Of a stretch of DNA of 64,000 nt, positions 10,669 through 62,479 are shown one piece after another. This stretch comes from Schmidtea nova (Eukaryota). Below the pieces are notes generated by a model, which did not search any database, had not been told where the DNA came from, and saw only the letters and a program-made list of their open reading frames with translations. Numbering within the stretch: the first letter of the stretch is position 1; each line of letters begins with the position of its first letter. Location of the stretch: assembly GCA_044892505.1 (NCBI GenBank), contig CM097883.1:119102001-119166000 (forward strand), written 5' to 3'. Position numbers and translations under genes: made by a program.

Positions 10669-10807
10669 NNNNNNNNNNNNNNNNNNNNNNNNNNNNNNNN
10701 NNNNNNNNNNNNNNNNNNNNNNNNNNNNNNNNNNNNNNNNNNNNNNNNNNNNNNNNNNNNNNNNNNNNNNNNNNNNNNNNNNNNNNNNNNNNNNNNNNNN
10801 NNNNNNN

Positions 10808-11456
10808 ACATCCTTTCAATTTTATTGTCAAATGAACCGGGGGGAATAACAAAATTAAGCATAAATATATCCTCAAAATCATCTTGATCGAAATAAAGTA
10901 ACGTCTGTAATGATTTCCCCAAGGTTGGATTGAGCTCGATTAAATCATCTAGATTAGCCTTTTCATTGGACAATGTTTTGAACATTACAAGAGGAGAGTG
11001 AAGATCAATCATAACATTATTGTAAATTGCAAGACCAAACAATCTACCGATTGCATTAAACTGCGGTAAATTATCATCAAATATCATTTTGTTAAACCAG
11101 CAGAGTCTTGATTCAGGATACATTTCAAAGAGACCATAATCGGGGTTTAAAACTTGAGGCACAACAAGTAAGAACAATTCCTTCATTACCCCGCCTTCAT
11201 CTAAAGCATCTTCACCCATGAAATTAACCCTAAATGACCTTTTAAGGTGACATTGAGAAGCACGCTGCAACTGGCTAACGGTATCACCTAGCAAATTATC
11301 TCTTCGTACAGTAATATGAAAACTGCTTTGTGCTACGAAGCATGGTAAATCTTCTGACATTAAGCATTTAGCCTCAATTTTCATCAAATGAGTTTTCGTA
11401 ATACCATCGAATGCGAAAGGATAGTTAAACAATGAAAATTCCATTTTTCGATACAC
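10808..11456 (-). CDS. Second, gap-truncated copy of the HERC-type HECT N-lobe ORF
   Basis: Same protein as aa 1-216 of the 1367-aa ORF except L91M and N210D. Runs into the gap at 10807. Confidence 0.75.
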
Positions 11457-15902
<4,446 letters not shown>

Positions 15903-33300: not shown

Positions 33301-36300
33301 TAAACAGTTCATTATATAACTCTGAAGAATTTATGTCTATTTCTTCACCATCAGTTAATACAGTTTGTAAATCGGTACATTTAATTTTCATTACTTCATC
33401 ACCCAAATTATAAATTTCATTAAAATTTATAAGAAATTGAAACTTTTCAGCATGACTATTCAGAAGTTCGAATCTCTCTATTAAGGAGTTAATTGCACTG
33501 TCCACAATTGGAAGAAAGAATGAAATTTTATAGTTCTGTTCCGGGTCTCTTGGCCTCTCATCACTACATTCGTAATTAAACATACGTTTTTTACGCCGTC
33601 GTAATGGATTTTCTTTAAATTGAGGACAAATATCTACATCTTCTGCCAAGGTTACAGCTTTTTTTATTATATTGTTAAAATTGTCATCTAAGCGGAATTC
33701 TTTAAAAAAAGTTATTAAATTATTTAAACATTTTGTTGATTCATTTAGGTTGGTACTTGAAGATTGGAACATTTTGCTCACAACATTAATTCTGCTTAAA
33801 ATCTCGTACCAAATTATTAGCGAACAAATAAATTCGTAGTCAAGTTTCATTGCTAAAGATTTAGCTTCAGATTTTGTATTATTGTCATTATTTTCATTAT
33901 CGTATATGGCAAGTAAAGCATCTAAATAATCTCCAATATTGTTTCTTAATGTGCTAAGTGCTTCAATTCTTGATTCCCACCGAGTATCCGATAAAGGTTT
34001 GAGCGTAATTTTACTAAATTGTTTTAACACATCCCAACGTTTTGTTGAAGCACTGAAAAAATTGTAAAGTTCTTGTATAATACCAAAAAAAAATTATAGT
34101 TTCTGTATTAACTTTCGCCGCATCACTGACCACTAAATTCAAGGTGTGAGCTCGTGGATTCTCATTCAAATTACGTCTTTGAACACCGCTATGCTTACCG
34201 CGCATATTAGCACCATTACCATATCCCTGTCCACGTAAATGTTTTATATTTAAATCTAATTCTTTTAGTTTTTCAACTATGCATCTGAACAAACCTTCGC
34301 CAGTAGAATCATTTATTTCTACGAAACCCAAGAAATGTTCTTCTACGGTAATCTGGTTGCTTTCATTTTTGTGGACAAATCTGACAATTACAGTCGTTTG
34401 TTCAGTGTGACTTATGTCGGGAGTACAATCCAATATTTTGGAAAAATATTTGGCATTACTTACTCTCTGGATAATAGCATTCACACATTTTTTTGAAATT
34501 AAAGATATTATTTCATTTTGGATATTTTTTCCCAAATAATGGACGGTGTCTTTTTGTATGTTCTGAATTTTCGCGAGATGAGTTTCCATTACAATATCAA
34601 ATTTAGAAAATAGTTCAACTAATTTTAAAAAATTATCATTGTTTTTCTGAAAAATTATATCTGACGAGCCGCGAAGAGCTAAATTTTGTTTAGCGAGATA
34701 TTTTATTATTTCAACAATTCTTTCTAACACACTACGCCAATGTCGTTTTTCCCTTTCATATACCTTTTCAAGTTCACTATCTATTGTGGTATGTTTCTCC
34801 AACTGTTTTTTAGTTGAACCCATTTTATAAACGATGTTAAATGTGATCTACTTACTTCATGGAAACTTAATGTCTTTGATAAATTTTGCCAATTTGAGAA
34901 ACCATCTGTTGTTAAATGACTTTTTTCACCTGCAAATAATTTGCAACAAGAACAGAATACGCAGTTTTTAGAAGATGAATATTTGAGCCACGTTCGTGAA
35001 ACAGTTTCATTATTTGCTATCTTACGATAATAATTATTATTACTAAAACTACGACCAGAATCATCTCGTGGATATAATTTATTTTTTATCTGTACCATCG
35101 CACCTTGCTCAATAATAACTTTTCGTATTTTGTCATTAATAATTTCCGGCCAAGTGGCTGGATCATTTGAATTAAATGAACTAAAATCTTCACTTGCTGT
35201 TTCGCTTACTTGCACTGTATTTTCTGTTTGTTGTGGTGAAGATAAATTATATTCAGAAGTTGACATGTTTTCATGTTCATTGTGTTGATCTGGTAATGCT
35301 AAAGAATGTGAATCAGTAACTTTTTCTACTGTGACTGAATGTAAATTTTGCGGTTCATTGTTAGTACTATTTATATTTACAGAGCTGTTATCGTTTTTTT
35401 TTAAAAATTTAGTCAATTGACCTTTTAGCTTCTTTTCTTGAATTTCTCTCAGCGCTTTTCTTTTCCGGTACTCTGCTCCAGATAATTTCTTTTTTTCCAT
35501 TTTTAAAAATTTTGGGTAAGATACTGCAAAATTTTAATAATTTAAAATACATAAAATTGATAAAAATCATTATACTCACAAAAATAATATTATCCAACAA
35601 ATTACTTTTTCTCTTACACTTTAATGTCTAATTAAAATTAAATATTTAACAAAACAAATTATATTTTTTTTTATGTTATTATTAAACAAATTACAATTTT
35701 TTCTTACACTTTAATCCTTTAATGTCCAATTAAAATTAAATATTTCACAAAAGAAATCATATTTTTTTAATGTAATGAATACTATTTTTTCTTACTCAAA
35801 ATATCGACACAATATAATTAACATGTACAAACGTGAATGGAAAATGGAACAGTACGAAAAAAAATTAAATTAGTTGGAAAATGTGTGTCATTTTATAAAA
35901 ACAAAAATCTATTATGCGAATAAAAATTCGTTTGAAAAAAAGAACCTACTACGAATAGATTATTTTTCGTGTTATTTTTAATTGGTGCGAAGAAATTTTT
36001 TTTTCAAAAAAAAAAGGATTGGAAATTAGATTTTAAAAAAATTGAAAAAAGTGGATAATCACTTTTCGATTTCAACGCCATTTTAGAGTGGCGCCCCGAT
36101 GCCGTGAATCTTCTGCTTCCACTGTTGAGCCGGGCCTGCGTGGCACCCAGGAAATTTAGCTCCTAAATTCGCATAATTGAACATATTAAGTTAACGTTTT
36201 AGTAATTGAATTTCCTGCTCCCCGTTTTTTATATTAATTTGTTTTATTTGGGAAAATGTTGGCAAGATTCTTCATTAAAAACGAATACAGTTAAAAACTT

Positions 36301-39300
36301 TTAAAAATTGAAAGTTATATGGAAGTTGTTGAAATTTGAATAAATTTTATAAAATATATTACAAAAACATAAAAATTGATATTATTATAGAATTAAAACA
36401 TAATATTGGATGAGGAATTACGTGCAAGTCGCGAATAAAGAAGAAATTATAATATACAAGCTTCATATATTATTCCCGAATAAACATAATTTTATTTTTT
36501 CTGCACATAGTAATCCAATTAAGTCGTGTTCTAATGGGAAAAACTACATTTTTTGTCACTTGCCAGTTTCTTAAAATCTGGTTTGAATGAGCTTTCACAA
36601 ACATACGTTGAAGCAAACATGGTGAGTAGAGTTAATGCGATTTCACGAACAATCGGGTAACTGAACGCCGAAAGTATCCAAAAAACTTCCAAACTAACTT
36701 GTTTATCTTGTAACTGCGTCTTTAAATCCCCATTGCTCTGAAGATCTATAAGCTGAAGCAAGAAAGTGCTTTCGTCAATCCATGTATACGTTTCAGCAGC
36801 TGCACGTGCAATACATCTTTCTTTACCGACCGAGAAAGGATTTATAAGGAACAGGAGCAAAGTATCATTAAATGTGAAGTTCTCAAATCGCTGTTTAAAA
36901 TTAACAATCAGTTTTCGAATAAAACAACTCATTTTAGCGACATTTTCATCATTCAAATTAGATTTTGTTGCCTCTGCGAGAGTTGGGAAATGTAAAAATT
37001 ACCGACTTTCAATATCTTGTTCAAAAAATATTAGCTTCTTCCGAAAAGAAGTTACGTTATAATAAAGATCGGCAACATTGTGTCCTCTTCCCTGCAACTT
37101 TGTGTTCAAATCGTTTAGATGGCCAAATATATCACATAAAAACGCAACATTCATCATAAACTTACCATCATCAAGTTTCTCTTTGAACACTGCCGCCTTT
37201 ATTAATTTGCTAGTCGGCAGAAACATTTTCACTTTGTCTTGTAGACACCAGAGTCATTGAAGTACTCTTCCTTTACTGAGCCATCTAACGTCATTGTGTG
37301 CTAATAAATCGCCATATTCTGCTTCTATTTCAGTAAGGAATGATTTGAAAAGTCTATGTTGGAGTGATGAAGTTGATCGAATAAAGTTTATAAGTTTGAT
37401 TGCGCTAGACATGGTATCAGCTAATTCTTCTGATAGTTGAGCGCACAGCACATATTGGTGTATTATGCAATGAATTGTTGCAATGCATGGATTGTTATCA
37501 GCAAGCCTTTTTGATAGACCATTCACTCTGCCAATCATGGCTGGTGCTCCATCAGTTGTCAAAGAGACCTTTTTTTGCAAGTTGATTTGATTTTGAACAA
37601 AAAAAATATGTATTATTTCGTAAATATCATTAGCTCCTGTGTGCTCCATCAGTGGCAGTAAACATAATAATTCCTCATAAAAGACATCTTTATAAAGAAA
37701 CCGAACGTAAACGGCCAATTGTGCCACATCATTTCCATCGGTTCATTCATCCACGGCAATTGCATATTTATCCGCTGATTTAAGCGAGGAGCAGAGAATC
37801 TGGAATGATCCACCCGTCGTCCGGTGGTCGTGTCTGATAGTGGAATGTTGTTGATAGTCGAAATTATCTGCGCTTTTTCATTATCATTAAATATTGAGTC
37901 TATTACTTCCCGCATACATTCTTTTACTATTTCAGCATCACTAAATGGTTTCTTATTCTTTGCAAGAGTCCATGAAACTCTCAGTGATGCCTCCATTGCT
38001 CGTTCTTGATTCGATATGCTTTTTGTTAATATAAGTCGTGCACTTTTTAATGAAGATTGAAGCGATCTTTTTCTATCACGCCTGATAGTGGTATTTGGTG
38101 GGTATTCTTTCTCGAATTTGCTGTGCTTAGTTTCAAAATGTCTTTTCATATTCGACACTTTGTAAACTGCCACGCTTTCGTTGCACAGCAAACAAACAGG
38201 TCGACTTCCAATTAACGATAGAACAAACAAAAAATTGTCTGTCCATGAATCATGAAATACTCTGTTCTCTGAATCAACTTTACAGTTTCTGTTCATACGT
38301 GGCATTGCATTTTTAAATTTATTTAATTACAAAGAAATCAATTTTAATGTATTAATAAAATATTTCAAATGGATGCGAAGCTGCATTCAAAAATTATGGG
38401 GTAAGCAAGAAATGTATATCGCTTAAATATTAAAAAAAACAACAAACCCATATTAGCCGGATCTATTTTAACACGTCATTAAGGACAAATATTATACAGT
38501 AAAAAAATACCTGAGCGTTTTTATGTATATATCATCCAAATATTTTTATATGTGTAATATTCAAAGATATTGAAAGGGCCATTTTCAAATTTCGGTGGGC
38601 CGGCCCGCGGGCCGCCAGTTGAATATCCCTGCCCTATGCAATTACGAAAAAACGAGGATACTGCCCCAGTATATTTTGAAAAAAATAGAAAAGATAGTTG
38701 ACCAAGTTGGGACAAGAAAGAATTGATGTCATATTTTTTGGTCTATTGTATCAAAGACAAAGAGACACAGAAAGAAATAAAGATGAGAGATGCGATAAGC
38801 GTCGAAGAAATAAAAGGAATGATAAAGAAGGTCGATGATATAAATATTGAAGTGTTGGGAATTTCAGTTTTAAATAGAAGGAAAGAAACATTTGCGAATA
38901 TTGTCAAGGCAAGACAGGGATTTGCCGATAGACAGAATCAAAGCCGAAATTTTACAAATACACAATGGATTGAACAAAGATATGATTCAAGACCGATGAT
39001 AAAAGCAGATAGCAACTAGAATAACTTCTAACAAAGAGAAATTCCTGTTAGAAACAGACCAGTTATTACATGTTGGAATTGCCAGGAAGTGGGTCATATG
39101 AGTCGAGAATGTCGGAAACCAAGGATTCTGAAATGCTTCCAATGTGGAAAAGAAGAGCACAAATCCAGAGAGTGCAATCAGGGAGCATCGAATGCAAAGA
39201 TGAGATATTTTGCGTGTAAAGATATCGGACATAATAGAAGAGAATGTCCATCAATATCTTGCTCAGGATGCGGTAGAAGAGGCCATTTGCGATTTCAATG

Positions 39301-42300
39301 CTGGAACCAGACATACAGAAGAAGATACGCAGACGAGCGTGGACCACAGAGACGAACACAGGTAGCCGCTTTTCAGACCGATCGAACCGAAAATTATGAA
39401 AATAACTCATGTCAAGACGAAGACTACCCAAACGGAGAAGCTCCATCTTAGGGCGAGATGATCGGAGCAATGAATTAATGGGTAATAATGATGGTTGTGT
39501 ATGCCAGTATAAATGTATAAATAGATATAAATATATTAATAGTATTAATAATAAAGTGAATAGTATAATTCCTTTTGTAAATAATATAAAGAATAGTAAT
39601 AATAACGTGAATAGTTTAAGTCCTTTAGTAGATAATTTAAATAAAATAAATAATAAAATTTTGGATGAGAATAATGAAATTGAAAATAACGTTGGTAGTA
39701 AAGCTGTGGGAATCATCGATATAGTTGAAAAAAATAATGAGCTGAAAACAAATTTTAAAAAAGTGAATCAATGTTATGTAACAAAAAATTTTAAAAATAA
39801 AAAGTCAATAAAAAATAAATTTACGGATATTGATGATGCAATTATTTTAAATGTGCGGAATGGCAATCATTTTAATATTGATGACAATAATAAAAAAGTA
39901 TGCGGAAATAATTGTACCCAAATTTTATCGATAGACGACGTTAAATTTTTAAAGAAAGAAAAAAATATGATTTATGCACATATTGAAAAAGATAGAATAT
40001 TTGATACATGTGATTGTAAAATACAAAATAGAAATGAAACATATTCTAAGAAGGATCAGTATAATATTGTTTATGATAAAATGGGTGGACGTCCAAGTGT
40101 ATTAATAGGCATAAATAATTATTTTAAGAATTGTTTGTTGGATACAGGGGCAAGAATGAATGTGATGGATAGTTCGATTATAAAAGAGATAGGAAATCCG
40201 ATTTTAAATGAACAGGGTGACAAAATTTGGTGCGCAAATGGTAGTCCATTAAAAACTTTGGGAAGGATCAAAGTTAAAATAAATATAGAAAATAGAGAAG
40301 AAAATATTGTTTTTGTAGTAGTTGAAAATGTATCTCCATCGATAATAGGAGGAATCGATTTATTACGTAGATTTGACATAAAATTAGTGAAAGTTACAGA
40401 AAATAAGAGCAAAATTGCAACCGAATATAATGATAATATAGAAATATGTAACATTGAAGCCAAATTTGGGAAAAGAACGAGCGATGAACTTCGATTTAAA
40501 AGAACAATCGAATTAATAGGATCAAGTTGTGACAATAAGCTTTATGGAGTAATTAAAAGAAATGCCGAAGTATTTATGATAGATAAGTGGGATATCGGCA
40601 AAACCAATCTATTAAAACATGATATCAAAACTGTTGAGGGACCAATCCATTTGAACCCAAGAAGACAACCAGCCCACCTAGAAGAAAAGATTGAAGAAGC
40701 TATTAAAAATTTGGAAGAAAACGGCATAATTAGGAACTGTGACTCACCGTGGAATACGCCGTTAGTATGTGTCTGGAAGAAGGAAAAAATGATATTCGAT
40801 TGTTTTTAGATTTTAAAAGTCTAAATAAAATGACAGAAAGGCAAATTTTCGCAATGCCTAATATCGAACAGATGTTAGATTCATTAAACGGATCAATGTA
40901 CTTTAGCACCATTGATCTAGGAAGCGTGTATTATCAGGTTGAATTGACAACAAATTCGCAAGTAAATACAGCGTTCTTAACAAGATCGGGACAGTATTGT
41001 TTTAATAGGATGCCTTTCGGAATTGCGGCGGCTCCAGCTACGTTCCAAAAATTAATGAATATGGTTTTAGGAAAATTATTATGGAAAATTGCGATAGTAT
41101 ATTTAGATGATATTTTAATATTCTCAAAAGACAAAGAAGATCATATAACAAGAATAAATGAAGTATTAGAAAAAAATAATGCTAGTTTCGACACCATATG
41201 AGCTGTTCTGTCACAAATTGATGATTTAGGTAATGAACGTGTTATTGCCTATGGTTCACATACGATGAGTAAACATAAAATAGGATACTGTATCACGAGA
41301 AAGGAACTTCTAGCAATTTATTACTTTGTACAGCATTTTAAGCATTATCTTTACGGAAAGCGATTCCAGCTAAGAACAGACCACAAAGCTATAACATTTA
41401 TGATGACAACTAAAAAGCCTATAACAGCACAATTTCAGATATGAATAAACTTCTTGAGTAGTTTAGATACGGATATTAAATATCGAAAAGGAACGGACCA
41501 TTCGAACGCTGATGCGTTATCGAGAGATAAATGTGGGAGATGTACTCAGTGTATGGAAATTCATGAAGATCCAAAAACAGAAAAAGTAAAAACCAGATTG
41601 TTGGCAATGACAGCTACTAAACAAGGATTTCAATGGCAAAAAGGTAATGAAGAGATAGAACTTATGAGAAAAACAATTAATAAAAATGAGACTACAAGAT
41701 TTAAAATCGACGAAGATTTAATTTTAACAAGAGAAAATAAAATTTGGATTCCAAAAGAAAATAGAATTGAATTTGAAAAGCATGCACAAAATGTTGTGTC
41801 ACGCTGGGTGTAAGAAGGTAATCGATTATATTAAAATTAATTACGATGTGGAAGAATTAAATACAATCGCAACTCAATATATACAAAGTTGTGAAATATG
41901 CCAGAAAAGAAAAACATTGACAACAAAAACAAGAAATAATTGTAAAAACAGAAGTTGTGGAACCTTTTGAAGTTATAGCGATAGATTTTTGTGGACCTTT
42001 ACAGACGAACATTCATGGAAAAAAATATATTTTGGGAATTATTGACATGTGTAGTCGATACATTTCGTTAACAGCAGTTGCAAAACAGGATGAAAAAACT
42101 ACAGCGGATACTATTATGAAATTCTGGATATTAAAAAAAGGGGCACCTAGAATTATTCAAGTTGATTGTGGCAAAACATTTGAGTCTAACTTGATAAAAG
42201 AGTTGACAAAGAATCACAATATACAGCTACAATTTTCGAGCCCTTATCATCATAATACTAATGGTTTGATTGAAAGACCATTTCGAACAATACGAGATTT

Positions 42301-45300
42301 TATCATTACGTCATTAAAAGACAAACTTAAGAGGAAGTGGGTTGAAGTATTACCTGAAATCGAATTTACTTTAAATGCAACTATTCAGAGCACAATTGGA
42401 AAGAGCCCCTCAGAAGTAGTATTTGGTTTCCGGATATCTAGAGAATAGAACAATAATAATAGAAGATACAACGATAGAAGTAAAATAGTGGACGAAATAC
42501 AATCAAAACAAAGAAATTTAAGTTATAAAAATAAGAACCGGATACACCGAAAATTTGATATAAATGAAGAAGTTTTGGTTAAAGTAGATGTGAGAAAAAA
42601 AGAGGAAGATCGATATATCGGACCTTTTACGGTTGTTAGAAAGATACATGAGAATAGCTATGAATTACGAGACAGAGATGGGAAAATGATGGTCCGCAAC
42701 GTTGAATGGCTAAAACCTTTTAAACAAGGGGGATGTTATGGATATTTAATTAACTAATTTATAAATAACATATTTTGTATTATAAGTAATCAATTTTATT
42801 ATATAGTCAAATTATTATAAGTATAAATGCTGGCACGCATAATTGTCGTTAATATTTAATTGATTAATTCGCCATTTTAAATTTGTTCGAATAAGACAAA
42901 TTATTACGGAAGCAGTTTTTATTTGAATATAATTTATCAACAGCAAATCTTTAATTATTAACAATTATTATTATTATTATTAACAATTATTATTATTATT
43001 ATTAATAATAATAATATTATTAATATCAATAATTCCCATAATGGATGACTATAGATCAAAATTTCTTTAAATAAGTACACAATATTTCGGCACAGCCTTT
43101 ATCAAGTGTGTATTATTATTGGTATGCACCAACATTTGCACCAGCAGTACCCATGTATCAAAGTGAAAGAATAAAGGAGATAAAACCAGTAGATAATATC
43201 AAATTAGAATTAGAAAAAAATTGAGCCAATTAGTGCGAAAATTGAACGAAAAAACATGCTTGGACTACCATGTAGTTATGTGCTGATGACTATGGGGGAG
43301 AAGCCAATCAATATACAGTTTAACGAATGAATAGTCGAAGCCTTGTTGTACTCAGGTTCAAGTCACATAATAGTGTCGGATAAAATGTTAACACGTAAAG
43401 AAAGAGCAAGTATAAAGCCAACGGGTAAAAATATCAAATTAGTATCGCTTAACTGTTTAATTAGATGATAAATTATTTATCGAAGATAAAGAAATAACGC
43501 ATAGTTTAACAGTGATAAGGAAAAGTCTTAGTTGGTATGGGTGTTATGCGACAATTACAAGGAATTCCTTTTGATCTATGGACTAGGAAATTAATGAAAG
43601 GACAAACCGAGAAAAGTGTAAGTAAAAATGTCTTTTTAAATTTGTCTCTAGAATTACCAGCAAGAAGCGAAGTGATATATTATGTTGACGTAACGAATGT
43701 ATAATTGAGCCAAATCAGAAGATAGGAGAAAAATATGACATACCGATGTGTGATGAGATAGTAAAATACCAAACAGTAACATTAGAAATAGCTAACGATA
43801 GCTTAAAATACATTCAAATAAAACCCAAAACAAAGTTGGGAAGATTGACAAAATTTAGAACTGAAAAAGCTCAAAAATTGCCGAAAAATATCAAAATCTA
43901 TAGAAAACCACAAGTTATTAGCAACGATTTAACTTATGTACAAAAACGATAATTCATGGCGTTACTGAGAAGATACGAGAAAGTGTTTGCAAGGCACAAA
44001 TATGATTTGGGACTTACTCAAGTAATCTAACATGAGATACCCTTAATCGATGAAACTCACATTAAATTACGACCGTATAGAATTCCATATATATACATCA
44101 AGAAGAAAGCGATCGACAAATCAAAGCAATGAAAGAATTTAAAATAAAACGAAATAGTTCATCACCATTCTCTTTATCAATAGTCGTAGTCAAAAAGAAA
44201 GACGATGATTTAAAATTTTGTGTTGAATTATTGAAAATTAAATCAAGTTATGAGAAAATATACTTATCCTATTCCAGTTTCACAAGAAATTTTTAATCAG
44301 ATGGGAGAAGTGAAAGTTTTCACAGAAATTGACCTAAATAAAGGTTATAACCACTTTAAAGTAAAATAAGAAGATAGAAGAAAACAGCATTCTCATATAG
44401 CAAAGGTTTATATAAATTCAATGTATTGTCTTTTGGCTTAATAGGAGCGCCAGATACGTTCAAAATAGGTATGAATTTTGATTTGTGTGACATTCCACAT
44501 GCATTAGTTCAGCGTTTCCCAAAGTGTGTTCCGCGGAACCCTGGGGTTCCGTGGACTGATAGCAAGGGTTCCGCAAACTTTGTAAATAAATAATTTATAA
44601 ATAAAGATTAATAAATAATTCTCGATTTTATTTGATCCAATGTAAAATTCTTTTTCAATTCCATTGATATTGCCTTCAAAAATGCATTTCCATTCTATTT
44701 CATATGTGCCAATTCCATTTCATTCACTATATAAAAACTAGATCTGGCAACATTTGCATTTGATTTTTGTAAATAGGGTTCCGTCAAAAATTTGAAATCA
44801 AAAAGGGTGCCGCGCTGAAAAAATAATATTTTCTAGTAGTTTACAGAAATACTTAAAGGATGTAGAAACTGTATTCAATCGATTAATAGAAGCTAATTTG
44901 AAAGTAAAACTCTCGAAATACGAGTGGGGCAAATCAGAAGTAGCTTATGTGTGTCATATTATTTCGCGAAATGGATTACAACCAAACCCAGAAAATGTAG
45001 AGAAAATTAAAATTACTCAGTTTCTAAAGATATAGATCAGGTTCGGCAATTTCTCGGATTAGTCAGTTATAGAAAATTCATTAAAAATTTTCACATGTGG
45101 TACAACCTTTGAATATATTATTAAAAAAGCAAGCTTATTAGGGCAAAAGTCGAAGACGAGAAAGATCCTGTTATTGCCTATACTAGTAGAACATTGGAAA
45201 CTCTCGAAAAGAATTATTCTACTTTTGAAAAGGAGACATTAGCACTAGTTCATGGAATAACTACATTTAGACAGTAGTGTCCTGTCTACACCACCAGACC

Positions 45301-48300
45301 CCCGCCCTTAATGTCAAGGCTATTTTAAGGACATTTTGAGGTCAAAATTTAAGGGCATGTCGTTTTAATTTTAAAAAACTAGGTCAAATTTGATTTAAGG
45401 TCACCATAAGGACAAAGTGGTGTTAATAACCAAAAATATTTGCTGAGGTCATCATAAGGACAAAGTGGTGTTAAAAACCAAAAAGATTTACAAGATTTAA
45501 AAACCGATTTAAAACCGAATAAATTTCTTAAGTAGTCATTATTTACAAGTAGACTTTTATACACAGAAATTAATTCTCTAAAAGATAGTTTGAATTTAGT
45601 TTTTTCTCTACTAAACGCCTGATTTTTTGGAAATATATTTAGATTATTTTCTATGTAATATAGTATTTACTACAAGAAACCTTAAATTTATTTTCCCTCA
45701 TGTTTTATTTGTAAATTGTATAAGAACAAATCGCCAAATAAAAACTCCAACAGGTCTTTATACTAAGCATTGTTAACCATTAAAAATAAATATCACAGGT
45801 CACTATATAAAAGAAAACAAATGATCATACTAAACTTTTATTAAAATATATAATAAAAATCTTAAGTACATCTAGCACTATCGATTCTCTATACCGGTGA
45901 GGTTATATCCTTGTTGTCCATTTATAACCTTGAATTGAAACCATAATTCATTATCTTTGAAATCAATTGAATATAGATTTTTATTGATTTTCGATAAAAC
46001 TTTGTTTACTGCAATAAAATCTTTATTTAGATGTCCGATTAAATTTGCATATAATGATTTTGTTAGATTGACCGGATAAGAGAATCTGAATGGTATTTCA
46101 TCTGCCAAGAAATATATTTTATAGTCGTAGTACATTTGAACTGGTTTCACATCATTTTATTGACTTTAACATTCGTATCCTTTTTCAGTTGAGATGGCTT
46201 CATTGAGTTAATTGTTTCTTCAGTGTTAATAAGGCTGGTTTCTTTAAATACATTCGAGAATGTTCCAAAAACTGATTTATTTGAAATTATGAAATTGTCT
46301 TGTTTCGTCTTTGTATTTATAAGGTCAAAAATGTAGATGTCACCAATCAAATTCATGCATCTGTACTGCATATATTATGCATATGATTGTGCATCATGAT
46401 TCATTACCTACATATGTGTGAGCAGTAGATAACCTCTGTGACCTGTATGTGTGTATGATTCATTTTAGGTATTTGTCATGCATTCGTTTCGCATTTGTAT
46501 AAAATATTTCCAATAATTAAATCAATATAAATTATAATTAAAAACACTGTTTAAACGATTTAATTTAATAAATGCTCAACAAATAAAAAAAGATTTTCTA
46601 TAATATAAAAAAAAAGACAAATACCAAATAAATACTTATTACAGATCAACATTGTATTATCTGCATCATACATAATAATAATAATAAAAATTAAAAGTCA
46701 AAAATAATTTAAACATTTGTCAAAATAATACACTCGTTACTATATGAAAATGAAAACACCGAACTTATATAAATCACAAATGTAATAAAAAAACAAAGAC
46801 AAATACAAAGTAAATATTTATTACATATCAACAATAGATGCACCATGGAATTTTTCCAATTCCTTTCTTAGAAGCCATGTATAATATTTCTTCATACGCT
46901 TAATGTAGCATTCGCATCGATATGCACAAATGCTTGCTTTATTTACAATTGGGAGATCCTCGTCTACCGTCCTGAGATGCTCAATCAATATCGTAATGAT
47001 ATCAATACCAGTTATTGCACGGATCTTGAAAGGAAACATTTCCGGTGCGCAGTAAACGAGTTCCATCAACAGTCTAGGGTAAAACTCTTCCATCTTTCCG
47101 ATGAGAATAGACATTAATTTATTTAGAAACAAATAAAAAGTAAAAATAGAATATAAAATAATCTAAGTTTACCATTAATTGAGAACAAAGACATTTTTTG
47201 ATAAATACCGGAAAAATCTGTTGGTATTTATACTAGTTTATTTAAACACACTCATACAATCAACCAATCAGAATCGTGCATTTGTATTGCACATGTTATG
47301 CATTCATGGATATTAAAAAATCCAAAAAATCTTTATCTTCGATTATCAATTTTATTTCGCCAATAATTTGATTGGTGGTATCTTGATAATCTATATTTTT
47401 TATCCCAAGTAAAACGATTTTACCGCTAGGAAATATGTTTACGCACATTGGGTTATATTTAATAAATCTCAAAGCCGGAAATATTTCAGGTTCGTAAACC
47501 CATTCTGTTATCTTGGATAATTCATCTAAATTGATATGAGTTCCAATATCTGCGGTTACTGTGATTGGATGAATTTGCAAATCATGTATTTTGTATTGTA
47601 AATCTTGTACATTGATGGGTTTCTTACATTCCATTATTCGGCACTTACCGGTCTTAAAAAGTATTATAGGATATTTTCCGCTTCTATCAACAATTTTTTG
47701 TGGCTTTCCCTGTGGAAATTGTAAATGAGATACTGAACATTTTCCTTTGTAGTTTATGTTGCTTACCATTATTTTAAAGAATAATTTCTTAACTGTATTG
47801 ATGAAGAGTTGGAAAAAGATGGTGAATTTCAATCATTCTTCATTTCAAACTCTGCAAGATAAATGAGTGATACCTTTTTAGATCATGGTATCATTCTTTT
47901 AAATGAAATAATATCTTTAATTAATGAAAATGGAAGTAATTGGGCTATTAACAAAGGTAATGAAATCCATTTTGTTTTAACTAAATTTGTCCAAATTAAT
48001 AGATTAAGTGGCAGAGGTCATATAAATACCCCAAATTCTTTATTACCAAAACATTGCACAGTAAATGTAATAAACTCAGATAATTTATGTTTCATATGAA
48101 CCAAACAGTGATATCATCTGAGGGCCCAGCTAATCAAACATAATCAATCACACATACATACATAATACAATATAGAATAAGGGTTAAGGAAATCAAATAT
48201 CTCATTTTAATTACATCACAGTCGGGTTTATTTTAAAATTTTCCGCGTTCTTTTGAACAAACAACTAGATCTCAACAAATAACAAGGCTTATTTCATTTA

Positions 48301-52308: not shown

Positions 52309-53734
52309 ATCTAAAGAAAACTGCTTATTGCTTTATTAAATCAATCTTTTTAAAACGAACAATCTAAATATAAATACCGAAAAAAATTCATATTGTCGGC
52401 TTTTAAAATCATTGTGATTTGTTTCTCAGAGTACAATCTTGGAAGAAGTTAAAATCAAGTACAGAACAAAAATGCTTTATATAATTTTTTCGCAATTATT
52501 ACACAAACACACAACGTAACAAATAAGAAATAAATACATAATACGCCTCTATTGAAATAATTGTGAAATATTGGATAACGTTTTGTAAAAATCAAATTTT
52601 CGAAACCATTGTATTCGGTTATTTTCGATTATTTATTAAAAGTATTAAGCAAAAGGGATTGTGCGTTGGGAGTATCTCAACACTGATACGAATTAACTTT
52701 AAATATGGTCGAATTTTTGATGGATTCTAAAGGTTTTTGAAGGTTCCCATCCGGCTGGTGATTCGTCTTAAATTAGCTATAATCTATTGTCTGGTTGGGA
52801 GAGAAATAAGTATAAGGATCTCGAAAACGGAGTTTCGATGGAACTTACTCGTCGTCTAAATAGTGGGGAAGTTAAATAAAATCTTAAAAAGATTCTACAA
52901 TATTTTATCGAGAAATACAGACAAAAATCTTTAGATTCGCTAAACTATCAAAAAAAATCAGAAAAGCGGAACGCTATTCAAATAGTTGAAAGATTGATTG
53001 GTGTAGATACTAGGATCAACGTAGACTTTAACTAATGTTATGTACTGTTATTGAAAAATATAAATCTATGATCAAATGGGAATTTGATATAATAGGTATC
53101 GTGAGCGAAAGACTTTCTATCGACAGCCAGGAACCCAAAAAGAAAATGTAGTGAACACTAGTTTTGATTAACAAAACTCACTTCTCATTGGTTATAGATA
53201 ATTCCTGGACAGTAGTTATGTGCATACATTTAGGACAGTTGTTTTTTCACAAAGGTGTCTAAGTGACAGTAACCCTAGTAACGGTAAAATTTGAAGATTC
53301 ATACAAGAACATAACCAACGAGCTTTTCATCCAGTCAATGACCTCGAGTATAAAATAGTTAGTAGTAATTCATAATTGATTGTGGGAATTTAATGAAATG
53401 AATTTATTGAGGTAACAATAAATGCTAATTATTTAGAAAAAAACACTTTAAAGATGATAATAAATTTAAATGCAGGTTACAATTGCAAAATGATGAAGTG
53501 CATATTCATGATTTTAACAATATTTACTTCAAGTTTATTAGAAATTAAATTAAAATTTTTAAAAACAATTTCATATATTCTTTTCTAAAAATGAAATGTT
53601 TTTTAGCAAAAACCGAAATTCCTAAAAAAGTCTGTTTTTATATTTATTTTGACGTTGATAAAATTGTTTAAATATTCCATATATATTAAATAATCATTTA
53701 AATTGAATTTTTATACCTAGAGAATTTATAGACA

Positions 53735-56700
53735 ATGGATAGTACTAATTGTAATATCAAAAATCTTTTGGTGGAATTGGAATCCTTAAGATCTAAAGAG
53801 TCAATATATAAAGTATATAAAAAATATACATTAAATTTTTATTTATTAATTAAAATAAAGATGAAGGAAACCAACTTTTTACGGGATAAAGAAATACTCG
53901 AAGATTCAATAGGAAAGTTCCAAGCTGAACTACAGGAAAAATCAGAATTAATTCGTTCATTAAGACGTGATTTGGTAATTAACAATATCTTTCTAATAAT
54001 AATTTATATTCTTATCAATTTTTTAGAATACACAATCATCAAATCTTTTTAAAGATTTACAAATAAAAAACAATGAGGTTCATTTAGAATCACTTTTTAA
54101 CAATATTAGCATTTACAATTTAGCTTGAGAAAATGACACTGGAAAATGAAGATCTCAAGAAACAGTACGTAATTTCACAAGAAACAATTGATCATCAGGT
54201 TCAACGACTAGAAATGTTCCAGTCTGAAATGGATAAACAGTTGAAGATTTTCGAAAGAGAACTCGAATGCAAATCGAGACTTGCTGGATTTTATGAGGTA
54301 CTTTTAATTATTTGATTAATTAAATATTTTAATTGTTTTAGCAATTTTGGATTTTTTATTAATCCATTTTTAAACTTATCAATTGTTACATGAAATATTA
54401 TGCTTATTAATTAATATATTTTGCTATGTAATATACAATTTATTGGGGTTTCTATGTCTTTCTTGCTCAACTTTCAACAATAACTAGGGCCCAATTTATG
54501 TCATAAATTCGCCAAGATTAATTTTTACAACCCTATGGATTTAATTACATCGGTACTGACCTATTGTCACCAACTAATCAGGATAATTCTTTTAATTAAA
54601 TTGATCACTCACTAATAAATAAATAATTAGTAAATTTAGTTTAATTTAGCGATATTTAAATTATGTTGGTCCGTACTAATTGTTGCTATTTAAAATGATA
54701 ATTGTCAGACTTTGGACAGACGACAGAGCTTTTGATATACTGTTCAAAAAATACATAATACAAGAGCACATATTCATACAAACTTTGAAAAAACAATCAG
54801 AGTTATTGAATAAATGTTGAATATCAATAATTACACTTAATAATTACTATTTCTGTCATATTATTTCGATGGGTTAATATAAAAAATTGTTATATTCTTA
54901 GACTTTGGATCTAATTTAGCGAGTACTTCTAATTGACTCCCCTACATATTTTATTACGATTCAATTTTATCAATGTCTTTGTTTTCCTCTTTTCTATATT
55001 AAATTGTTCAATAAAATAATGTTACATAATTCTTTACCAACTATACTAACTATCTAATTCAGTCAAGCAACCAACAGAAAGACATCAAAATATCCGTAAT
55101 TACTGATGAAAATGAACATTACAAACATGAAATTAATGACTTGAAAGAACAGTTGAATAATTTAAAAGAAATAAATGAAGAGATGAGTAGAAACTATGAG
55201 GAATCATCAAATCAAATGAAGAATGATATAAATGATAAAGATCTCGAAATACATAGAATTAGAAATGAAATTCTCCAATTACAACAGAACGGAATATCCG
55301 AATTTCATTTGGAAAAAATGAATCCAGTCGCTGCCGCAACATTGAAAGTGTTTAAATCATCAAAAGGTTTAATGGAAATATATTCGGAATTGCATAGCAA
55401 AATCAGTGATGTCGATCGGTTGGAAATGGAAAAGAACAGATTGAAAAGAAATTACGATTCCCTCGAAACTGAATTGATCAATACAAAAATTTACGCAGAT
55501 AAATTAAAAAATGAATCCGATGAGACATCGAAAATTAATGAAAGCCTTAAAAGTCGATTATTAAGTCTCGTATCGGATTTAAGAACAACTCAATCGAAAC
55601 AAAGTGATCTCGAAAGACAGCTGATGGTCAGTAGAAAAAACTTGCAATCGAGTAACAGCGAAATCGAACGATTAAATGAACAAGTCAGCTTGTTTATTGT
55701 GATCGCAGAAAACGGCTCTCAGATTAAACAAGAAGCAGTAGATGCTGACAGTGGCTTGTATGCATCGGTGTCGGAATTACAGGAAATCAATCGGGCATTG
55801 AGACTCCACAATGAAGATTTGATAACTCAGTTGGAGTTGGGTGATTCGGAACAATATAAACGAAAATGTGAAGAACTCCAGAAATATGTCGATCAAACAA
55901 CCGATGAAATCAATCAACTGAGACAAGAAAATAGCGTCAATAAAAGTCAGATAGTACTCCATGAGAAACAAATCCAATTATTGCGTTATTTGATCGATCT
56001 TAAATCACCTGGATCATCATCGGCTATTGAGAATGGATTGAAACTGATTGAATCGGGTAATTTTGTCAATTTGGATTGTGATGATGAAATGGAACCGGAA
56101 TTGGTTAATTCATGTTTTGACAATGTGACAAAGGAGGAAAGTTCTGAACAGACTATTCTACAACAAGACGGCTTAATTAATGAATTTATTGACAATAAAC
56201 GCGCAAGTGATGAAGTTTACAAGTCTACAATCGAGCAAATGAGAATTCAATTAATGGAACTGTCAATGAAATCAAACGATCTGAGTGACAAGGTGAGTTT
56301 TGATCATTATATATAAAATTGAAAATTATAACATGCTTATAATATTTTGTATTTGAAAAAATGATAATCAATAAAAATAATTATGATAATCAATAAAAAT
56401 AATTATGATAATCAATAAAAATAATTATGATAATCAATAAAAATAATTATGATAATCAATAAAAAAATAATTATGTTAATCAATAAAAGATATGTTAATC
56501 AATAATCAATAATGTGTTAATCAATAATAAATAATTATGTTAATCAATAAAAAATAATTATGGTAATCAATAAAAAATATTTTTGTGATAGACATGGATA
56601 ATATTTTGTATAATTTCTTAATAATTTACATTTCAAATGAATTGATCGCAGGGAATTTCTTTTTTGATTTATTTTAATCAAATGACATCTGTTGTCCAGC

Positions 56701-59700
56701 TTCTATATAAATGATATATTATTGATTCCAATTGTAGCACTGTCTTTCTCAAGTGTTATTTATTTACTCTTTAAAAATTAAGATCTGGAATAAAATAACT
56801 TGTTTTAACCCTTTCGCAATGACTTTCATTTTGGACTTTAAACGAAAATATCATTACTGACTTAACAAATTTCTTTTGCATTCATTTATTATTACTTTAT
56901 AAAAACTATAGTACCTACCCCAATAATTACGTTTTCACTAATTGTATTCTAAAGCACCTCTTTGTGTACCAGCAGCTGCGAAAGGGTTAAAAATATTTAT
57001 TTCCTAATTAATATTTTTTTATTTTATAAATTCTCCAGCTAGAAAATGTTATTGAAAAATTGTCCAATGAAAAAGAAATGAATGAAAGATATCGCCAAGA
57101 AAGTGATCTTTTGAGATCCATCAACAAAAATCTTTTGTCGAATTCATCAAATTTGGAATCTGTTATTGAAGACCTAAAATTGAAACTTCAATCGAAAATC
57201 TCTTTACTTGCTGAAAGAAAGGCCAATTTAGACAGTTGCAAAAATTTACTGGATTTGGCCAAATCTGAAATTTTGCGATTGAAAATTGAACGGGATGATT
57301 CAATGAAAACAATTGATGTTCAGGAAAAGATATTTTCCAATATGTCCAGTTTGAAGGTTGACAATCATATTATTTTCATCTTTTCCTATAACGGCAATAA
57401 TCTAGAACGGTCTCGAGTTAGCTGACCATTTCAATAAAATCCAAGTTCGTAACAAAATCGAAAATTTGGACAAGTCATTGGAGAAAGCAATAAGCGATCT
57501 AAAAGAACGAGAAGAGAACATTGAGTTATTGAAAATTCAACTCGGCGAAAGCAGAGCATTGAATTTAATCAGAAGCTCTATTAGTTATTGTGATGTGAGC
57601 TGCCAGGGTGAAATATGGAATTTTTTAAAAAGCTAAATTAATTAATGGTATTCAGTTGATATTTCTTTATTTGAAGAATTCACAATCAGTGAAGAAATTA
57701 ATACAAAACCTGTCATTGACGAAGGAGCATTGATAAACTGCAGAAATCAAATCGCATCATTACAAACTCAATTGACTGGTGACAAATTAGAGTCGGACAA
57801 GAATATATTAGAGATGATGGGAGAAATGGAAAAATATAAGACGGAATTGCAAGAGTTAACAGAAAGTAATTATTGTTATAATTGTCGTGGAAATCATTTT
57901 GTGAAAATCAGAATGCGCATTCCTCGAGACTCAAATCAGCCTCCAAGAAAAGGCACGACAAGAAATACTCAGTGAAAACATCAAGATAACCGAAGAAGCT
58001 CACAAAATGGTATATTCCATCTGACTTATTCAATCAAATAATAATTTCAATCATTCAGAATGCCTCACTAAAGCAAGATCTCCATACCATCCAGGAAGAG
58101 CTGTCTGCTATGAAAATTCGACTAGAAGAAGCTGAGACGGTTGAAAGAACAGTGCAGGAAGTTATCGATAAATATATTAAAGAATCCAATGAAGCTAAAG
58201 CTAAATATAAGAGAGAACTAACTTTACATGCGGCCGATTCAAAGGTAAAATTTTTCTCTTTTTTATTCACTTTATTATGTTTAACTTTTGTCACAGCTTT
58301 TAGATGCAGCAAGAAAAGAAATCGATGCTCTGCAGTCGTTAGAGAAATCTTTTGAGGAAGAACGTTCAAATTTGAAATCAGAAGTGAAACAGTCGGAACA
58401 GTCTCGAAAGCAACAAATCGAAGAAATTCAAGCCCGGTACACGGATTTAGAAAGAAAGTTACAAGAATGTGAGAATAGAAATGAAAAACTATATGAGCAA
58501 TTAAAAGAAGTACGTTTAGTCTTCATTTTAATTTATTTTATTCATCTACTTATAATTATCAGTAGTAGATTTTCTAAGAAAATAGTTCAAATTATAATTA
58601 TATTACTTATGTTTATAGTAGAATAATATTCACTAAAATTACGTAAAATTAGACATGGATGGCGATGGGCTGACATTTGTATGCTTATATGATGCGGTAG
58701 TAGTAGGGTGCGTCCCCATCAGGCGCAACGCTTCTTTCAGCTTTGTTCTTTTTTCCCTCGTTTTTATATGAATTAATAAATTCCATTCATTGGTTGTGGA
58801 GTACATATAGCAGTCCGAATCGAAACTGACGAATTCCGGCAGATCTTCTTCATATTGTTTGCACAATTTTAATCGTCTTAATTTTATTTTAAATTACAAA
58901 AGTTACCTTTTGATCCTCTTTTGAAACGTTAATTTCCTTAGATTTCCACTATTTCTCTCGATCTAGGTCGTTATCTGACTTGGTCCTCAATTTATAAAAT
59001 GATATGGTTGGAACAACTTTTGCTCGTCTTAATTTTAATACATTACAATTACAAAAGTTTTCTCTGCNNNNNNNNNNNNNNNNNNNNNNNNNNNNNNNNN
59101 NNNNNNNNNNNNNNNNNNNNNNNNNNNNNNNNNNNNNNNNNNNNNNNNNNNNNNNNNNNNNNNNNNNNNNNNNNNNNNNNNNNNNNNNNNNNNNNNNNNN
59201 NNNNNNNNNNNNNNNNNNNNNNNNNNNNNNNNNNNNNNNNNNNNNNNNNNNNNNNNNNNNNNNNNNNNNNNNNNNNNNNNNNNNNNNNNNNNNNNNNNNN
59301 NNNNNNNNNNNNNNNNNNNNNNNNNNNNNNNNNNNNNNNNNNNNNNNNNNNNNNNNNNNNNNNNNNNNNNNNNNNNNNNNNNNNNNNNNNNNNNNNNNNN
59401 NNNNNNNNNNNNNNNNNNNNNNNNNNCAACGATTTATTTTCTATCTAATAATTCAATTAATTTTTTGCCGATTTTGATTACGACGGCTCACCAAATATGT
59501 TTGGATTTATAATACAACTTGGTATTATTATCTGACTACTCGTTCAACTACGTTCAACAGAATCAATAAACTTTGCCAAAAACACTTTTCTTTCGTTAGT
59601 GATAAGTCTTAAAAAGTGAAAACGTTTCTATAGGACTTGGGCATATCGTCATGACGATTTGAATATCTCATTGCGTTATCTGATCTTTGTTGTTCCTCAA

Positions 59701-62479
59701 TTTATAAAATAACAACTTTTACTCGTCTTAATTTTTTTATATCACAATTACAAAAGTTACCTTTTGTTTTTTATTTTCATCCTATTTTACTTTCTTGGCT
59801 CTTTTTATTTCCCCAGATTTTCCATATATATATTTTTATCTACAGTTTTTCTTAAAATAGTTTATTTTATGAGTGAAAATCTGATCGAAATAAAAAAAAT
59901 TGTCAATAATAATTTATTTATTTAGGTTAATAAAATGTTGTCAATTAAAAGTTAATCTACACAATTTGTAATTTTACAATAACTTATTTTTGAAAAAAAT
60001 TATAAAATTCGATTTTCAGATAAAATTGAAATAAAATAAATAATTTATTGAAATATCTAATTTATCAATTATTATTTATCAATTATAATTCTAGATCAAT
60101 AATCAGGGATCCAATTCAAGTTACATGGAAATAATTGAGTGATGATTGATAAAAATCTTTATAAAATCATATTTAACAAAGAATTTTAGGGATTTAAAAA
60201 ATCAAATCGACATAAAAAATATGTCAATGAATTTATCGGACGTGCAAAGGGAGCGATATGAAAATGAAATTTCTAGATTGCGAGAAGCATTAGCCGATTC
60301 AAATAAGGAATCAAAAGTCGCTATAGAAAGATTAAACAAGAGATTATCTGGCAATAATGTTTCTGTTACATTAGATCCGGAAGTCATTAGAGAAAGCAAT
60401 AGCGTACTACGACAACAGAAGGAACAATTGGAAAGGAACCTTATCAATACCAAATGTGAAGTAAGTTAAACGAAAGGCAGGAGGGTCAGTTATGATTCAC
60501 TCTCTTTTTAAGATTGAGGACTTGTCAGAACAAGTTTGTGGTCTCGAGGCTCGAATTGCGGATTTAACTGAGCAGAAAAATGTTTTAATTGAAAATAAAA
60601 GTGAATTAGTAGACGAGAAGAATCGCTGGAAAGAACGTTGCACTAAATTAGTTGAAAGGGCAGAACAAATGGATCCAGAACAATATAGGCTCGCTTGGTA
60701 ATTAGTTAATTAATTAATTAATTAATCATTTTCTTTAGCAATGATCGCGATAAATATCGAAAATTATCTCAAGAGTTGGAAAGTAATTTGAAAGAAACAA
60801 AAGATTCTACTAGAATAAAAACGGAGGAGCAAATGCAGAAAATAAGGGATCTGGAGAAGAATATGCAAATTGCGGAAGCAGATCGAAGGAAATTAGAAGA
60901 ACTGTCAGCCAGATTGAAACGAGAAGAAGGCATCATCGCTCAGTTGAAGGATATCGGGAGAAAGCATAAAGGAGAATCCGAGAAGCGCGGGCAATACATA
61001 TTGGAGTTGGAGAAGAAAATGTTGGAATTTCAGGAGCACTCGGAATCGTTTTTAAAGGAAAAAAGGAATTTGAGTGAGAAATTAAATGCGAAGGAATCTG
61101 AGTTGGAGTTGTTAAGGAAACAGCTGAAAGAATTAAGAACACGGTGTGATATTCTGGAAAAAGTCAACAAAAACAGAGAAAACACGATTGGGGAGCTCAA
61201 TGTCAACGTGGAACAATTAAAGTCTGATTTGTGTAGCATGAGGAGTAATCTGAAACGCCAAAGAAATGATTCCGAAGAATTGGATAATCAAAAAAGACAA
61301 AAGTTAAGCGAGGAAACTAAATCTCAATTTACTAATTGTGAAAGCCAAGAAAATGAGGAATTTGAAGAAATTTTGTTTGTAGATGAGAATATAAAGGAAG
61401 CAGAATATGAAGACGAAGAAAACGAAACAGAAACTGAAGAAGAAGAAGAAGAAGAAATGGAAAATGAATACAGAAGAATGGAAACAGAAAATGCTGATGA
61501 AGAAATAGTAAATGAAGTCGAATTTGAATGTGTGGAAAATGAAGTACAAATTGAAGAAGTAAATGAAGAAATAGAAGAAAATATTCAAGAAATAGAAGAA
61601 AATGTCGAAGAAATAGTAGAAAAGGTAGAAGAAACAGAAGAAAAGGTAGAAGAAATAGATGAAAATGTCGAAGAAATAAAAGAAAAGGTAAAAGAAACAG
61701 AAGAAAAGGTAGAAGAAACAGAAGAAAAGGTAGAAGAAATAGAAGAAAATGTCGAAGAAATAAAAGAAAAGGTAGAAGAAACAGAAGAAAAGGTAGAAGA
61801 AACAGAAGAAAAGGTAGAAGAAACAGAAGAAAAGGTAGAAGAAACAGAAGAACAGGAACAAATAATAGAAGTTGAAGAAAAGGAAGAAATTATAGAAAAA
61901 AGAAATTCGGGTGAAAAAGCATTTTTCGATGCTTGTTTTAATCAAGACAATAATGTTTTCGATGGAGAAGTCGAGAAAGATGAAATAGAAAATGAAAATG
62001 AAGAAGGAAAAGCAAATTTCGAAAACTTAACGGAAAATGAAAATATTATTGATAATGAAGATAAAAATGTAGAGGATGACAACGATTCGGAATTCAGTGA
62101 AGAAGAAGATGAAGACAATGAAAGTGTTGTTTTAATTGAAAGTGATTCTGACAGACAAGAAGAATTGGATAAAGAAGAGGAAGAGGATTGTGAGGCCATT
62201 GTGTTGGAGATAGAAAGCAGTTTGGAAAATATCGATAAAATGATTGAAGAAAGTCAAGAGACGATAGCTGAGAATGAAAACAATGACCTTCAGCAATCAA
62301 ATGCAAATGATGCGACAAACACCGATGTGTTGTGGAATGATAAACTAATCAATTTGGTAGTTGCTAGTAATCCCGTCATACCAGAAGTAACCAACACCCA
62401 GAATGAGGAACATAGACCGATAATGACCAGGAGTAGGCTCAGGCGGCAATTGAGGAGACCAAATCAGCCGACAGATTAA
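53735..62479 (+). CDS. TPR: Nucleoprotein TPR / Megator / Mlp1 orthologue, multi-exon (about 12-14 exons; exact structure not resolved, gap at 59068-59427)
   Basis: Long coiled coil with MNPVAAATLKV..GLMEIYS, SVSELQEINRAL, AKAKYKRELTLHAAD (TPR_MLP1_2 motif), NRWKERCTKL..DPEQYR and IAQLKDIGRKHK. Acidic disordered tail. GT-AG boundaries at ORF breaks. Confidence 0.9.
56362..56575. repeat. Intronic 22-bp minisatellite
   Basis: ATGATAATCAATAAAAATAATT, four near-perfect copies followed by several degenerate copies. Confidence 0.9.
56809..56986. mobile_element. piggyBac-type MITE in a TPR intron
   Basis: TTAA TSDs at 56805-08 and 56987-90. TIR CCCTTTCGC/GCGAAAGGG. Confidence 0.85.
61560..61855 (+). 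repeat. Coding 21-bp (7-aa, VEETEEK-type) tandem repeat in the TPR tail
   Basis: GAAGAAACAGAAGAAAAGGTA and variants repeat in frame about 13-14 times. Confidence 0.9.

Follow-up and report, generated by a model that had tools for sequence, protein, structure and literature searches.

The TBP-like locus

The window, by which we mean the whole 64-kb stretch analysed here, consists of AT-rich DNA of animal type in which genes with introns and numerous decayed transposons are found. It contains a 2.8-kb virus-like piece (45275 to 48096) that holds, in this order, a terminal-repeat-derived end, a frameshifted ORF195, ORF97, the TBP-like gene, a spacer stub and a fragment of protein-primed DNA polymerase B (pPolB). 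The features of this piece and its surroundings are listed below, (.) marking those without an assigned strand.

28697-29393, 32975-35533, 36531-38326, 39032-42757 and 43200-45274: decayed mariner-like, hAT (two) and Ty3/gypsy (two) elements
45160..45274 (+): RNase H region of a decayed Ty3/gypsy element, broken by the Polinton end
45275..45800 (.): Polinton end of an older subfamily, derived from a terminal inverted repeat; 74-88% identity to the best-matching other copies
45865..46353 (-): remnant, now frameshifted, of the accessory gene ORF195, which is conserved in Polintons; TATAAATA box at 46314-46321
46821..47114 (-): ORF97, a small accessory gene with Cys and His residues; next after the TBP-like gene in every own-genome family examined
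47225..47268 (-): host-type promoter of ORF97, with TATAAATA at 47225-47232 and a CCAAT box at 47264-47268
47296..47769 (-): shortened TBP-like gene, 157 aa, probably a relic copy; 87% amino-acid identity to family A
47770..47792 (.): spacer stub, ~23-25 bp left of the ~95-bp head-to-head spacer between TBP-like gene and ATPase
47793..48096 (+): internal fragment of pPolB; tblastn E 3.7e-21 and 5.8e-28

The Polinton end belongs to an older subfamily whose other termini are decayed, one pair of them facing inward at a distance of 13.4 kb and flanking Polinton genes. No continuation of the interrupted gypsy element is found beyond the Polinton end up to 54000, so that no target duplication can be read, and the junction between the two is spanned without differences by contigs of runs X1 and X2, which stem from one study and may themselves be the source of the assembly. 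An internal deletion has joined the pPolB fragment, 87-92% identical to decayed polB copies elsewhere in the genome, to the spacer, thereby removing the ATPase, integrase, capsid and protease genes together with the 5' part of pPolB; the window copy hence has a single end, and neither a right end nor any core gene besides the pPolB fragment is present within the window. The YATAAACR box of the ATPase gene, described below, is also gone from the spacer at 47770..47792, and the promoter of ORF97 is of the form retained in family A. In the alignment, the window TBP-like protein differs from that of family A at 21 sites, and conserved columns are altered by G47E, Q67H, S68P and S114P; among 48 outside members of the family, G47 is present in 47 and S68 in all 48. 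Since most of the upstream spacer is lost and near-invariant positions are substituted, we read the window copy as probably a non-functional relic.

Elsewhere in the window, host genes include mitochondrial EF-Ts and a TPR-nucleoprotein-like coiled-coil gene in exons (27281-28105 and 53732-62479). A 1363-aa ORF at 11796-15887 (-) joins HECT, Hsp70, ubiquitin and DUF1759 (retrotransposon gag-like) domains and adjoins a second HECT ORF at 10632-11444 (-); the former looks like gene capture by a BEL/Pao-type element.

Polinton families carrying the gene in this genome

A protein search of the genome with the window TBP-like sequence returns, in addition to the window copy, at least 149 further copies at 85-87% identity, and a second family, searched with its own query, comprises at least 150 copies at 99-100% identity. 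The back-translated motif EPE[IL]FPALR, which is absent from host TBP, has 10,367 exact matches genome-wide, some of them presumably in fragments or tandem copies, against 0 for the control, and the end of family A occurs 831 times.

Copies of family A span 16.9 kb and are arranged as ORF195, ORF97 and the TBP-like gene on one strand, then ATPase, ORF189, integrase, putative minor capsid, ORF128, putative major capsid, protease, ORF144 and pPolB. They are bounded by inverted repeats of 1.84-1.92 kb (1843 bp at 99.8% and 1919 bp at 99.9% identity in two copies) with the ends AGTAGTAG, a 6-bp target duplication is present in six of seven end pairs, and six copies are 98.8-99.8% identical over 10 kb. 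Pfam matches on family-A copies include Pox_A32 (E 3e-6) and an rve integrase (E 5.6e-9) carrying a chromodomain at its C end; the adenoviral-type protease is recognised as Peptidase_C5 (E 1.8e-5), and pPolB as PF03175 (E 1.9e-34) on an own-genome copy 77-86% identical to family A. Two ORFs of 425 and 361 aa at the expected place represent putative capsid genes, an assignment based on position and on one sub-threshold DJR-like Pfam match on a related copy (E 0.0056). At all 31 own-genome loci examined (19 of family A, 12 of family B) the TBP-like gene stands head-to-head with the A32-type ATPase gene.

ORF97 has no homologue in the protein search and no Pfam match, and its predicted model reaches a pLDDT of 54; for ORF195 there is no PDB match below E 0.68, and Pfam gives a weak match to DUF7006. 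In some families ORF97 bears an acidic C-terminal extension and a CxxC pair (L048:1676-2209; L150:128-787; L185:2147-2800), reminiscent of the 'Oncoid' genes in the available part of PMC8502044. A search of the same genome for a Polinton clade lacking the TBP-like gene brought up nothing but relatives of the families that bear it; L142 and L150, recovered in this way, carry the gene, and the matches to capsid and polB queries resemble families A and B.

We also note several structural peculiarities. The family-A inverted repeats are unusually long (1.85-1.9 kb), with internal tandem repeats that vary between copies (L023:6213-8050; L041:1259-3100), and tandem arrays of partial family-A copies, with units of ~2.3 and 5.6 kb, lie near the start of contig C2 (G000:C2:260000-515000; L014-L020, L029-L032). 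The integrase frame of families A and B is broken at the same site by a ~44-nt GT-AG intron-like insert (L024:1740-1785; L046, family B), which fits nuclear Pol II transcription of the elements.

Relatives beyond this genome and phylogeny

A profile search yields 56 clusters at E ≤ 1e-30 and 438 at E ≤ 1e-10, the latter set including cellular TBPs. Two grades of relatives can be distinguished, a short type like the window gene and an intermediate type that has the repeat-1 helices and lacks the stirrup Phe. At 50 metagenome loci, a core Polinton gene accompanies the TBP-like gene in 22, an accessory Polinton gene only in 13, and neither in 15, of which 13 are shorter than 2 kb; among loci of at least 3 kb, 16 of 21 have a core Polinton gene, in variable gene order. 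One further locus, L164, was recovered via its ATPase and also has the TBP-like gene. Viral-contig scans with TBP, capsid and integrase queries returned no relatives, the same scan with the ATPase query returned three distant elements only, and an Atlas search with the homologue P0018 returned TBP clusters only, with recognition below its threshold. Other cargo in TBP-bearing Polintons or their flanks comprises a ubiquitin-conjugating enzyme, a KilA-N protein and a PLA2-like protein (L098:222-722; L132:6944-7912 and 8993-9397). The Polinton pieces L164, L165 and L167 occur in contigs filed as bacterial genome bins, where they are probably host contamination.

A quick tree of 68 rows, built with SH-aLRT as its only support measure and without giant-virus TBPs, places 58 Polinton-type rows together (SH-aLRT 100), separated by a long branch from the rows of host and plant TBPs (96). 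Only the rows that come from loci have a known Polinton context, and two rows labelled cellular, P0075 and P0095, are actually family members. TBP-family loci of the host itself (L178-L182, L184) comprise a canonical TBP, which contains introns and shares 78% identity with a cellular TBP, and at least four divergent members, these five all scoring above the Polinton copies; a weaker candidate lies in L184. The view of the initial annotation that the gene is too divergent to be host TBP or TRF is in line with these separate groups, and, of its proposed checks, the phylogeny and the linkage to pPolB, integrase and putative capsid genes in full elements, which here also carry ATPase and protease, agree with an element-encoded gene.

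Could the gene nevertheless be a captured host TBP/TRF copy that decays as a passenger, or a host paralogue at a fixed place? The damaging-looking substitutions of the window copy and its position as the longest recent branch (0.10 vs 0.022 for family A) would suit a decaying passenger. In the young families, however, the gene is intact (mean nucleotide identity 99.7%) and its dN/dS of 0.13-0.27 in six pairs is well below 1; it is under purifying selection, yet evolves faster than the ATPase gene (0.03-0.04). A host paralogue is opposed by the separate grouping in the tree and by ~10,000 dispersed motif matches. The passenger or paralogue reading, which we consider highly improbable, thus fits the window copy only and is largely refuted for the family. 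The TBP-like gene is real, Polinton-encoded, conserved and widespread, and the data support it as regular cargo of a wide Polinton/Maverick clade rather than a one-off capture.

A shortened TBP fold with an altered DNA face

The predicted model and structure comparison show the two-lobed TBP saddle over the whole length of the protein, with about 21-24% structural-alignment identity to cellular TBPs and ~25 residues fewer. Together with the Polinton gene context, this confirms the 157-aa TBP-like core inside a Maverick/virus-like segment that had been described from the window alone. In comparison with cellular TBP, as aligned in the profile search, the equivalents of F116, F190, F207 and N69 and the acidic stirrup E186/E188 (YEPE[IL]FP) are kept; the F99 equivalent (deleted), the repeat-1 stirrup, most of H1 and all of H2 are lost. 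Three of the four intercalating Phe are thereby retained, in agreement with the initial reading of a lost repeat-1 motif and preserved repeat-2 Phe, and all 48 outside members have Ser at the position equivalent to N159. The yeast residue numbers used here (F99, F116, N159, I194 and so on) are those that we take to correspond to the family positions. Between residues 48 and 61 the predicted model has no long helix, and the alignment has a gap.

Conservation among the 48 outside members extends both to retained and to family-specific residues: F38, F97 and F113 are present in 48, E93 and E95 each in 47, and, of the family-specific residues, N6, M46, S68 and N111 in 48, R44 in 47 and R101 in 44; C109 is found in at least 90% of the alignment. 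Near-invariant substitutions on the DNA face comprise V71N, V122R, T124M, N159S, I194R, V203C and L205N. Positions 101, 109 and 111 align with yeast I194, V203 and L205, the equivalents of which face base pair 2 in the normal pose, whereas YATAAACR, the box described below, departs from the consensus at positions 1 and 7. From this pattern of the DNA face we infer that the protein was selected to read a different box. I194, V203 and L205 are the residues altered in the TATA-specificity mutant TBPm3 according to the available part of PMC1636458.

The protein-protein surfaces are affected unequally. In cellular TBP, the basic helix H2 of the N-lobe makes the contacts with TFIIA, TAF1 and Mot1. 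The repeat-1/H2 surface lost here is described as the contact site of these three factors, and the acidic stirrup E186/E188 as a contact for TFIIB, in the accessible part of PMC7221094.

A strand-specific box upstream of structural genes

Reading of the regions upstream of element genes led to recognition of the box YATAAACR. Within 90 nt upstream of the predicted start, it occurs in a non-redundant set in front of the ATPase gene in 14 of 14 cases (19 before removal of near-duplicates), of the putative major capsid gene in 8/8, ORF144 in 9/10, integrase in 7/9 and protease in 3/6, against shuffle means of 0.2-0.9 for the box-bearing gene sets; these box counts are post hoc, the motif having been noticed on the same loci, the starts were placed by homology, and the elements are kin, so that the counts are not independent. 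The putative minor capsid gene and ORF128 have no box within this distance (0/8 each). At a greater distance, four elements have it ~99-101 nt ahead of ORF128, and L098, L120 and L132 have it upstream of the minor capsid gene; in family A there is none within 130 nt of the minor capsid start.

The box is strictly oriented. In 48 kb of structural-gene regions from 11 elements it occurs 64 times in sense and 0 times in antisense direction (shuffles 8.4 and 5.7), and over 13 regions, two related ones included, 75 times and 0 times. The 64 sites fall in all three reading frames and also outside ORFs. The box is absent from 16.7 kb of polB coding sequence, and window DNA outside the element gives a background of 7 vs 8 by strand. 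As a weak comparison, the TBP-less controls consist of one decayed animal-type Polinton (L167, 0/0 in 6.5 kb) and three distant elements showing no strand pattern (L139-L141 with 7/5, 8/6 and 4/4, two being near-duplicates).

The genes for the TBP-like protein and its neighbours are equipped differently. Upstream of the TBP-like gene YATAAACR is seen in 1 of 32 regions (shuffle 1.2) and a canonical TATA in 15 of 32 (shuffle 4.4), and ORF97 and ORF195 are preceded by CCAAT and TATAAATA. We note that the other 17 of the 32 TBP-like upstream regions often have TTGTTTT/TTGTTTA ~45-65 nt before the start (L090, L102, L103, L106, L123, L124, L126-L129, families A-C), possibly a second promoter class or an autoregulatory site. 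The TATAAATA word was rejected as a target of the TBP-like protein, with 8 sense vs 8 antisense occurrences in the structural-gene regions; YATAAACR would be a better candidate than the neighbouring TATAAATA boxes that had initially been suggested for binding assays.

These distributions bear on what the box may be. One alternative is that the protein binds element DNA for a replication origin, packaging or self-repression, the box serving independently, for instance as a 3'-end signal or poly(A) variant. Tight gene packing indeed puts many boxes close to where the preceding gene ends, 7 of 64 lying on a stop codon, and the TBP-like gene often adjoins that of the packaging ATPase. The ATPase box of families A-C, however, sits in a head-to-head spacer where no same-strand gene ends, at 27-50 nt from the ATPase start, AATAAA has no such bias (97:82 by strand), and the acidic stirrup is kept; we give this alternative little credence.

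Alternatively, a host factor, be it host TBP, a paralogue or a Forkhead protein, reads the box, and the TBP-like protein acts as a decoy by sequestering TFIIB or obstructing host TATA boxes. Such a role would be compatible with a protein whose best-kept surface is the TFIIB stirrup and whose repeat 1 is cut down, in a host with five TBP-family loci; moreover, TATAAACA is one base off the TATA consensus, and the structure matches include 1qn3, a plant TBP on the C(-25) TATA variant. The ATAAACA within the box is also a Forkhead-type site, but the 64:0 strand bias and the narrow spacing misfit such a reader, and the other Forkhead-type word, GTAAACA, is distributed 10:5 by strand in the 13 regions. 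The family-specific invariant residues of the DNA face would be needless for a pure TFIIB sponge, the TBP-like gene itself avoids YATAAACR, and TBPm3 discriminates against C in downstream positions, as stated in the available part of PMC1636458. Overall, a decoy beside a host-read box appears unlikely. Of the two roles first considered for the gene, element-encoded transcription factor or decoy, the element encoding is supported by copy structure, linkage, selection and tree, and we favour the factor over the decoy in view of the non-canonical TATA-like box ahead of the structural genes, with its strand specificity and constrained distance.

Proposed mechanism

Based on the conserved surfaces of the protein and the arrangement of the box, we consider it probable that this shortened TBP-fold Polinton cargo is the element's own late-promoter factor, predicted to bind YATAAACR and to recruit host Pol II via host TFIIB. 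The TBP-like gene, ORF97 and ORF195 would be expressed first, from host-type promoters. The TBP-like protein would then bind YATAAACR ahead of the packaging, integrase and putative capsid genes, its remodelled DNA face accommodating the C at box position 7, a departure from the TATA consensus. Once bound, it would recruit host TFIIB and RNA polymerase II to the packaging and capsid genes, and loss of the basic repeat-1 surface may confer freedom from control by TFIIA, TAF1 and Mot1. Several observations count against this reading: one of the four intercalating Phe and the N159 equivalent are lost, the altered DNA-face positions and the departures of the box fall at different base pairs, the box is missing within 90 nt of the putative minor capsid gene and of ORF128, a canonical TATA is absent from 17 of 32 regions upstream of the TBP-like gene, and this gene evolves faster than that of the ATPase. 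For the more far-reaching proposal, i.e. an early-to-late cascade throughout a wide animal-Polinton clade in which one 150-aa rewired TBP with a private YATAAACR box operates outside TFIIA/TAF/Mot1 control and by itself recruits host TFIIB and Pol II, we regard the case as evenly balanced.

Should the function hold, a TBP-like factor would provide Polintons with promoter switching of the virus type. If true, the cascade would rank as the smallest viral promoter-switching system known and as a natural orthogonal TBP-promoter pair; it would also give sequence evidence for a truly virus-like programme of expression in Polintons. For animal Polintons, whose virus-like life cycle is putative, the literature examined gives no account of how the capsid genes are switched on; a dedicated factor and a defined 8-base box make such switching testable. 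In addition, matches to the gene signature are about two thousand times as numerous as the five host TBP-family loci, and de-repression could therefore affect host transcription. Silencing of Polintons by piRNA in a planarian is reported in the available part of PMC8532177.

Comparison with known systems

The elements share with Polintons, Mavericks and adintoviruses, as described in the accessible parts of PMC6431247 and PMC8502044, the pPolB, retroviral-type integrase, packaging ATPase, adenoviral-type protease, putative capsid genes, long inverted repeats and 6-bp duplication. The initial suspicion that TBP is not standard Maverick cargo holds for the standard gene lists in those parts of both papers, PMC6431247 not naming TBP among Polinton genes, and fails for the wide Polinton clade described here, in which it is a regular gene. 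'TBP' does appear as a figure-legend label for MELD viruses with adintovirus-like PolB, without analysis, in the available portions of PMC8502044 and its preprint; the word 'promoter' is absent from the main text of PMC8502044, as is 'polinton' from PMC7221094, and the accessible part of PMC12220804 holds nothing relevant. Beyond this label, neither the family nor the box is described in the mainly open-access literature covered on Polintons and TBP or promoters, and an annotation may exist elsewhere, for instance in subscription papers or Repbase.

With cellular TBP (PF00352; PDB 1ytb, 1cdw, 1mp9) the protein shares the two-lobed saddle, the F116/F190/F207 equivalents and the acidic C-lobe stirrup. 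Cellular TBP has four Phe, two central Asn and H2, whereas the Polinton protein is shorter, has polar changes on the DNA face and is encoded by a mobile element.

The best viral fold matches are TBPs of large DNA viruses (E 2.8e-7). TBPs are known from the nucleocytoplasmic large DNA viruses (NCLDVs) and, according to the available part of PMC7221094, are likewise divergent, with a conserved L5.1 Phe and loss of the N-lobe regulatory signatures. In the same source their stirrup acids are variable, ~40% conserved, whereas the Polinton family keeps each acid in 47 of 48 members. Most viral TBPs are argued there to use a viral TFIIB, and NCLDVs mostly encode their own; the 17-kb Polinton, in contrast, has no match to an RNA polymerase, and no Pfam match to TFIIB among the family-A ORFs, where remote homologues may remain.

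The closest functional parallel would be the TBP mimics of beta- and gamma-herpesviruses (EBV BcRF1, KSHV ORF24, CMV UL87), which are paired with TATT late boxes (PMC4893493, available part). In both systems a viral TBP-like protein is associated with a TATA box altered by one base before structural genes, with use of host Pol II and with canonical TATA on early genes, the Polinton side of this parallel being predicted from sequence. The herpesvirus mimics, however, are large proteins in a six-member viral complex (PMC4893493, available part), whereas the Polinton protein is a bare 157-aa core with a TFIIB stirrup; no Pfam match to further pre-initiation factors of the herpesvirus type is found among the family-A ORFs, several of which are without assignment. 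Foldseek matches to the mimics are distant (E about 1e-2 to 3e-3), and YATAAACR differs from the TATT box. The Polinton system would hence resemble the herpesvirus TBP-mimic/TATT system without being a member of it and, if the proposed function is true, elements of only 17 kb would offer a minimal counterpart to the herpesvirus strategy of combining a TBP mimic with an altered TATA box.
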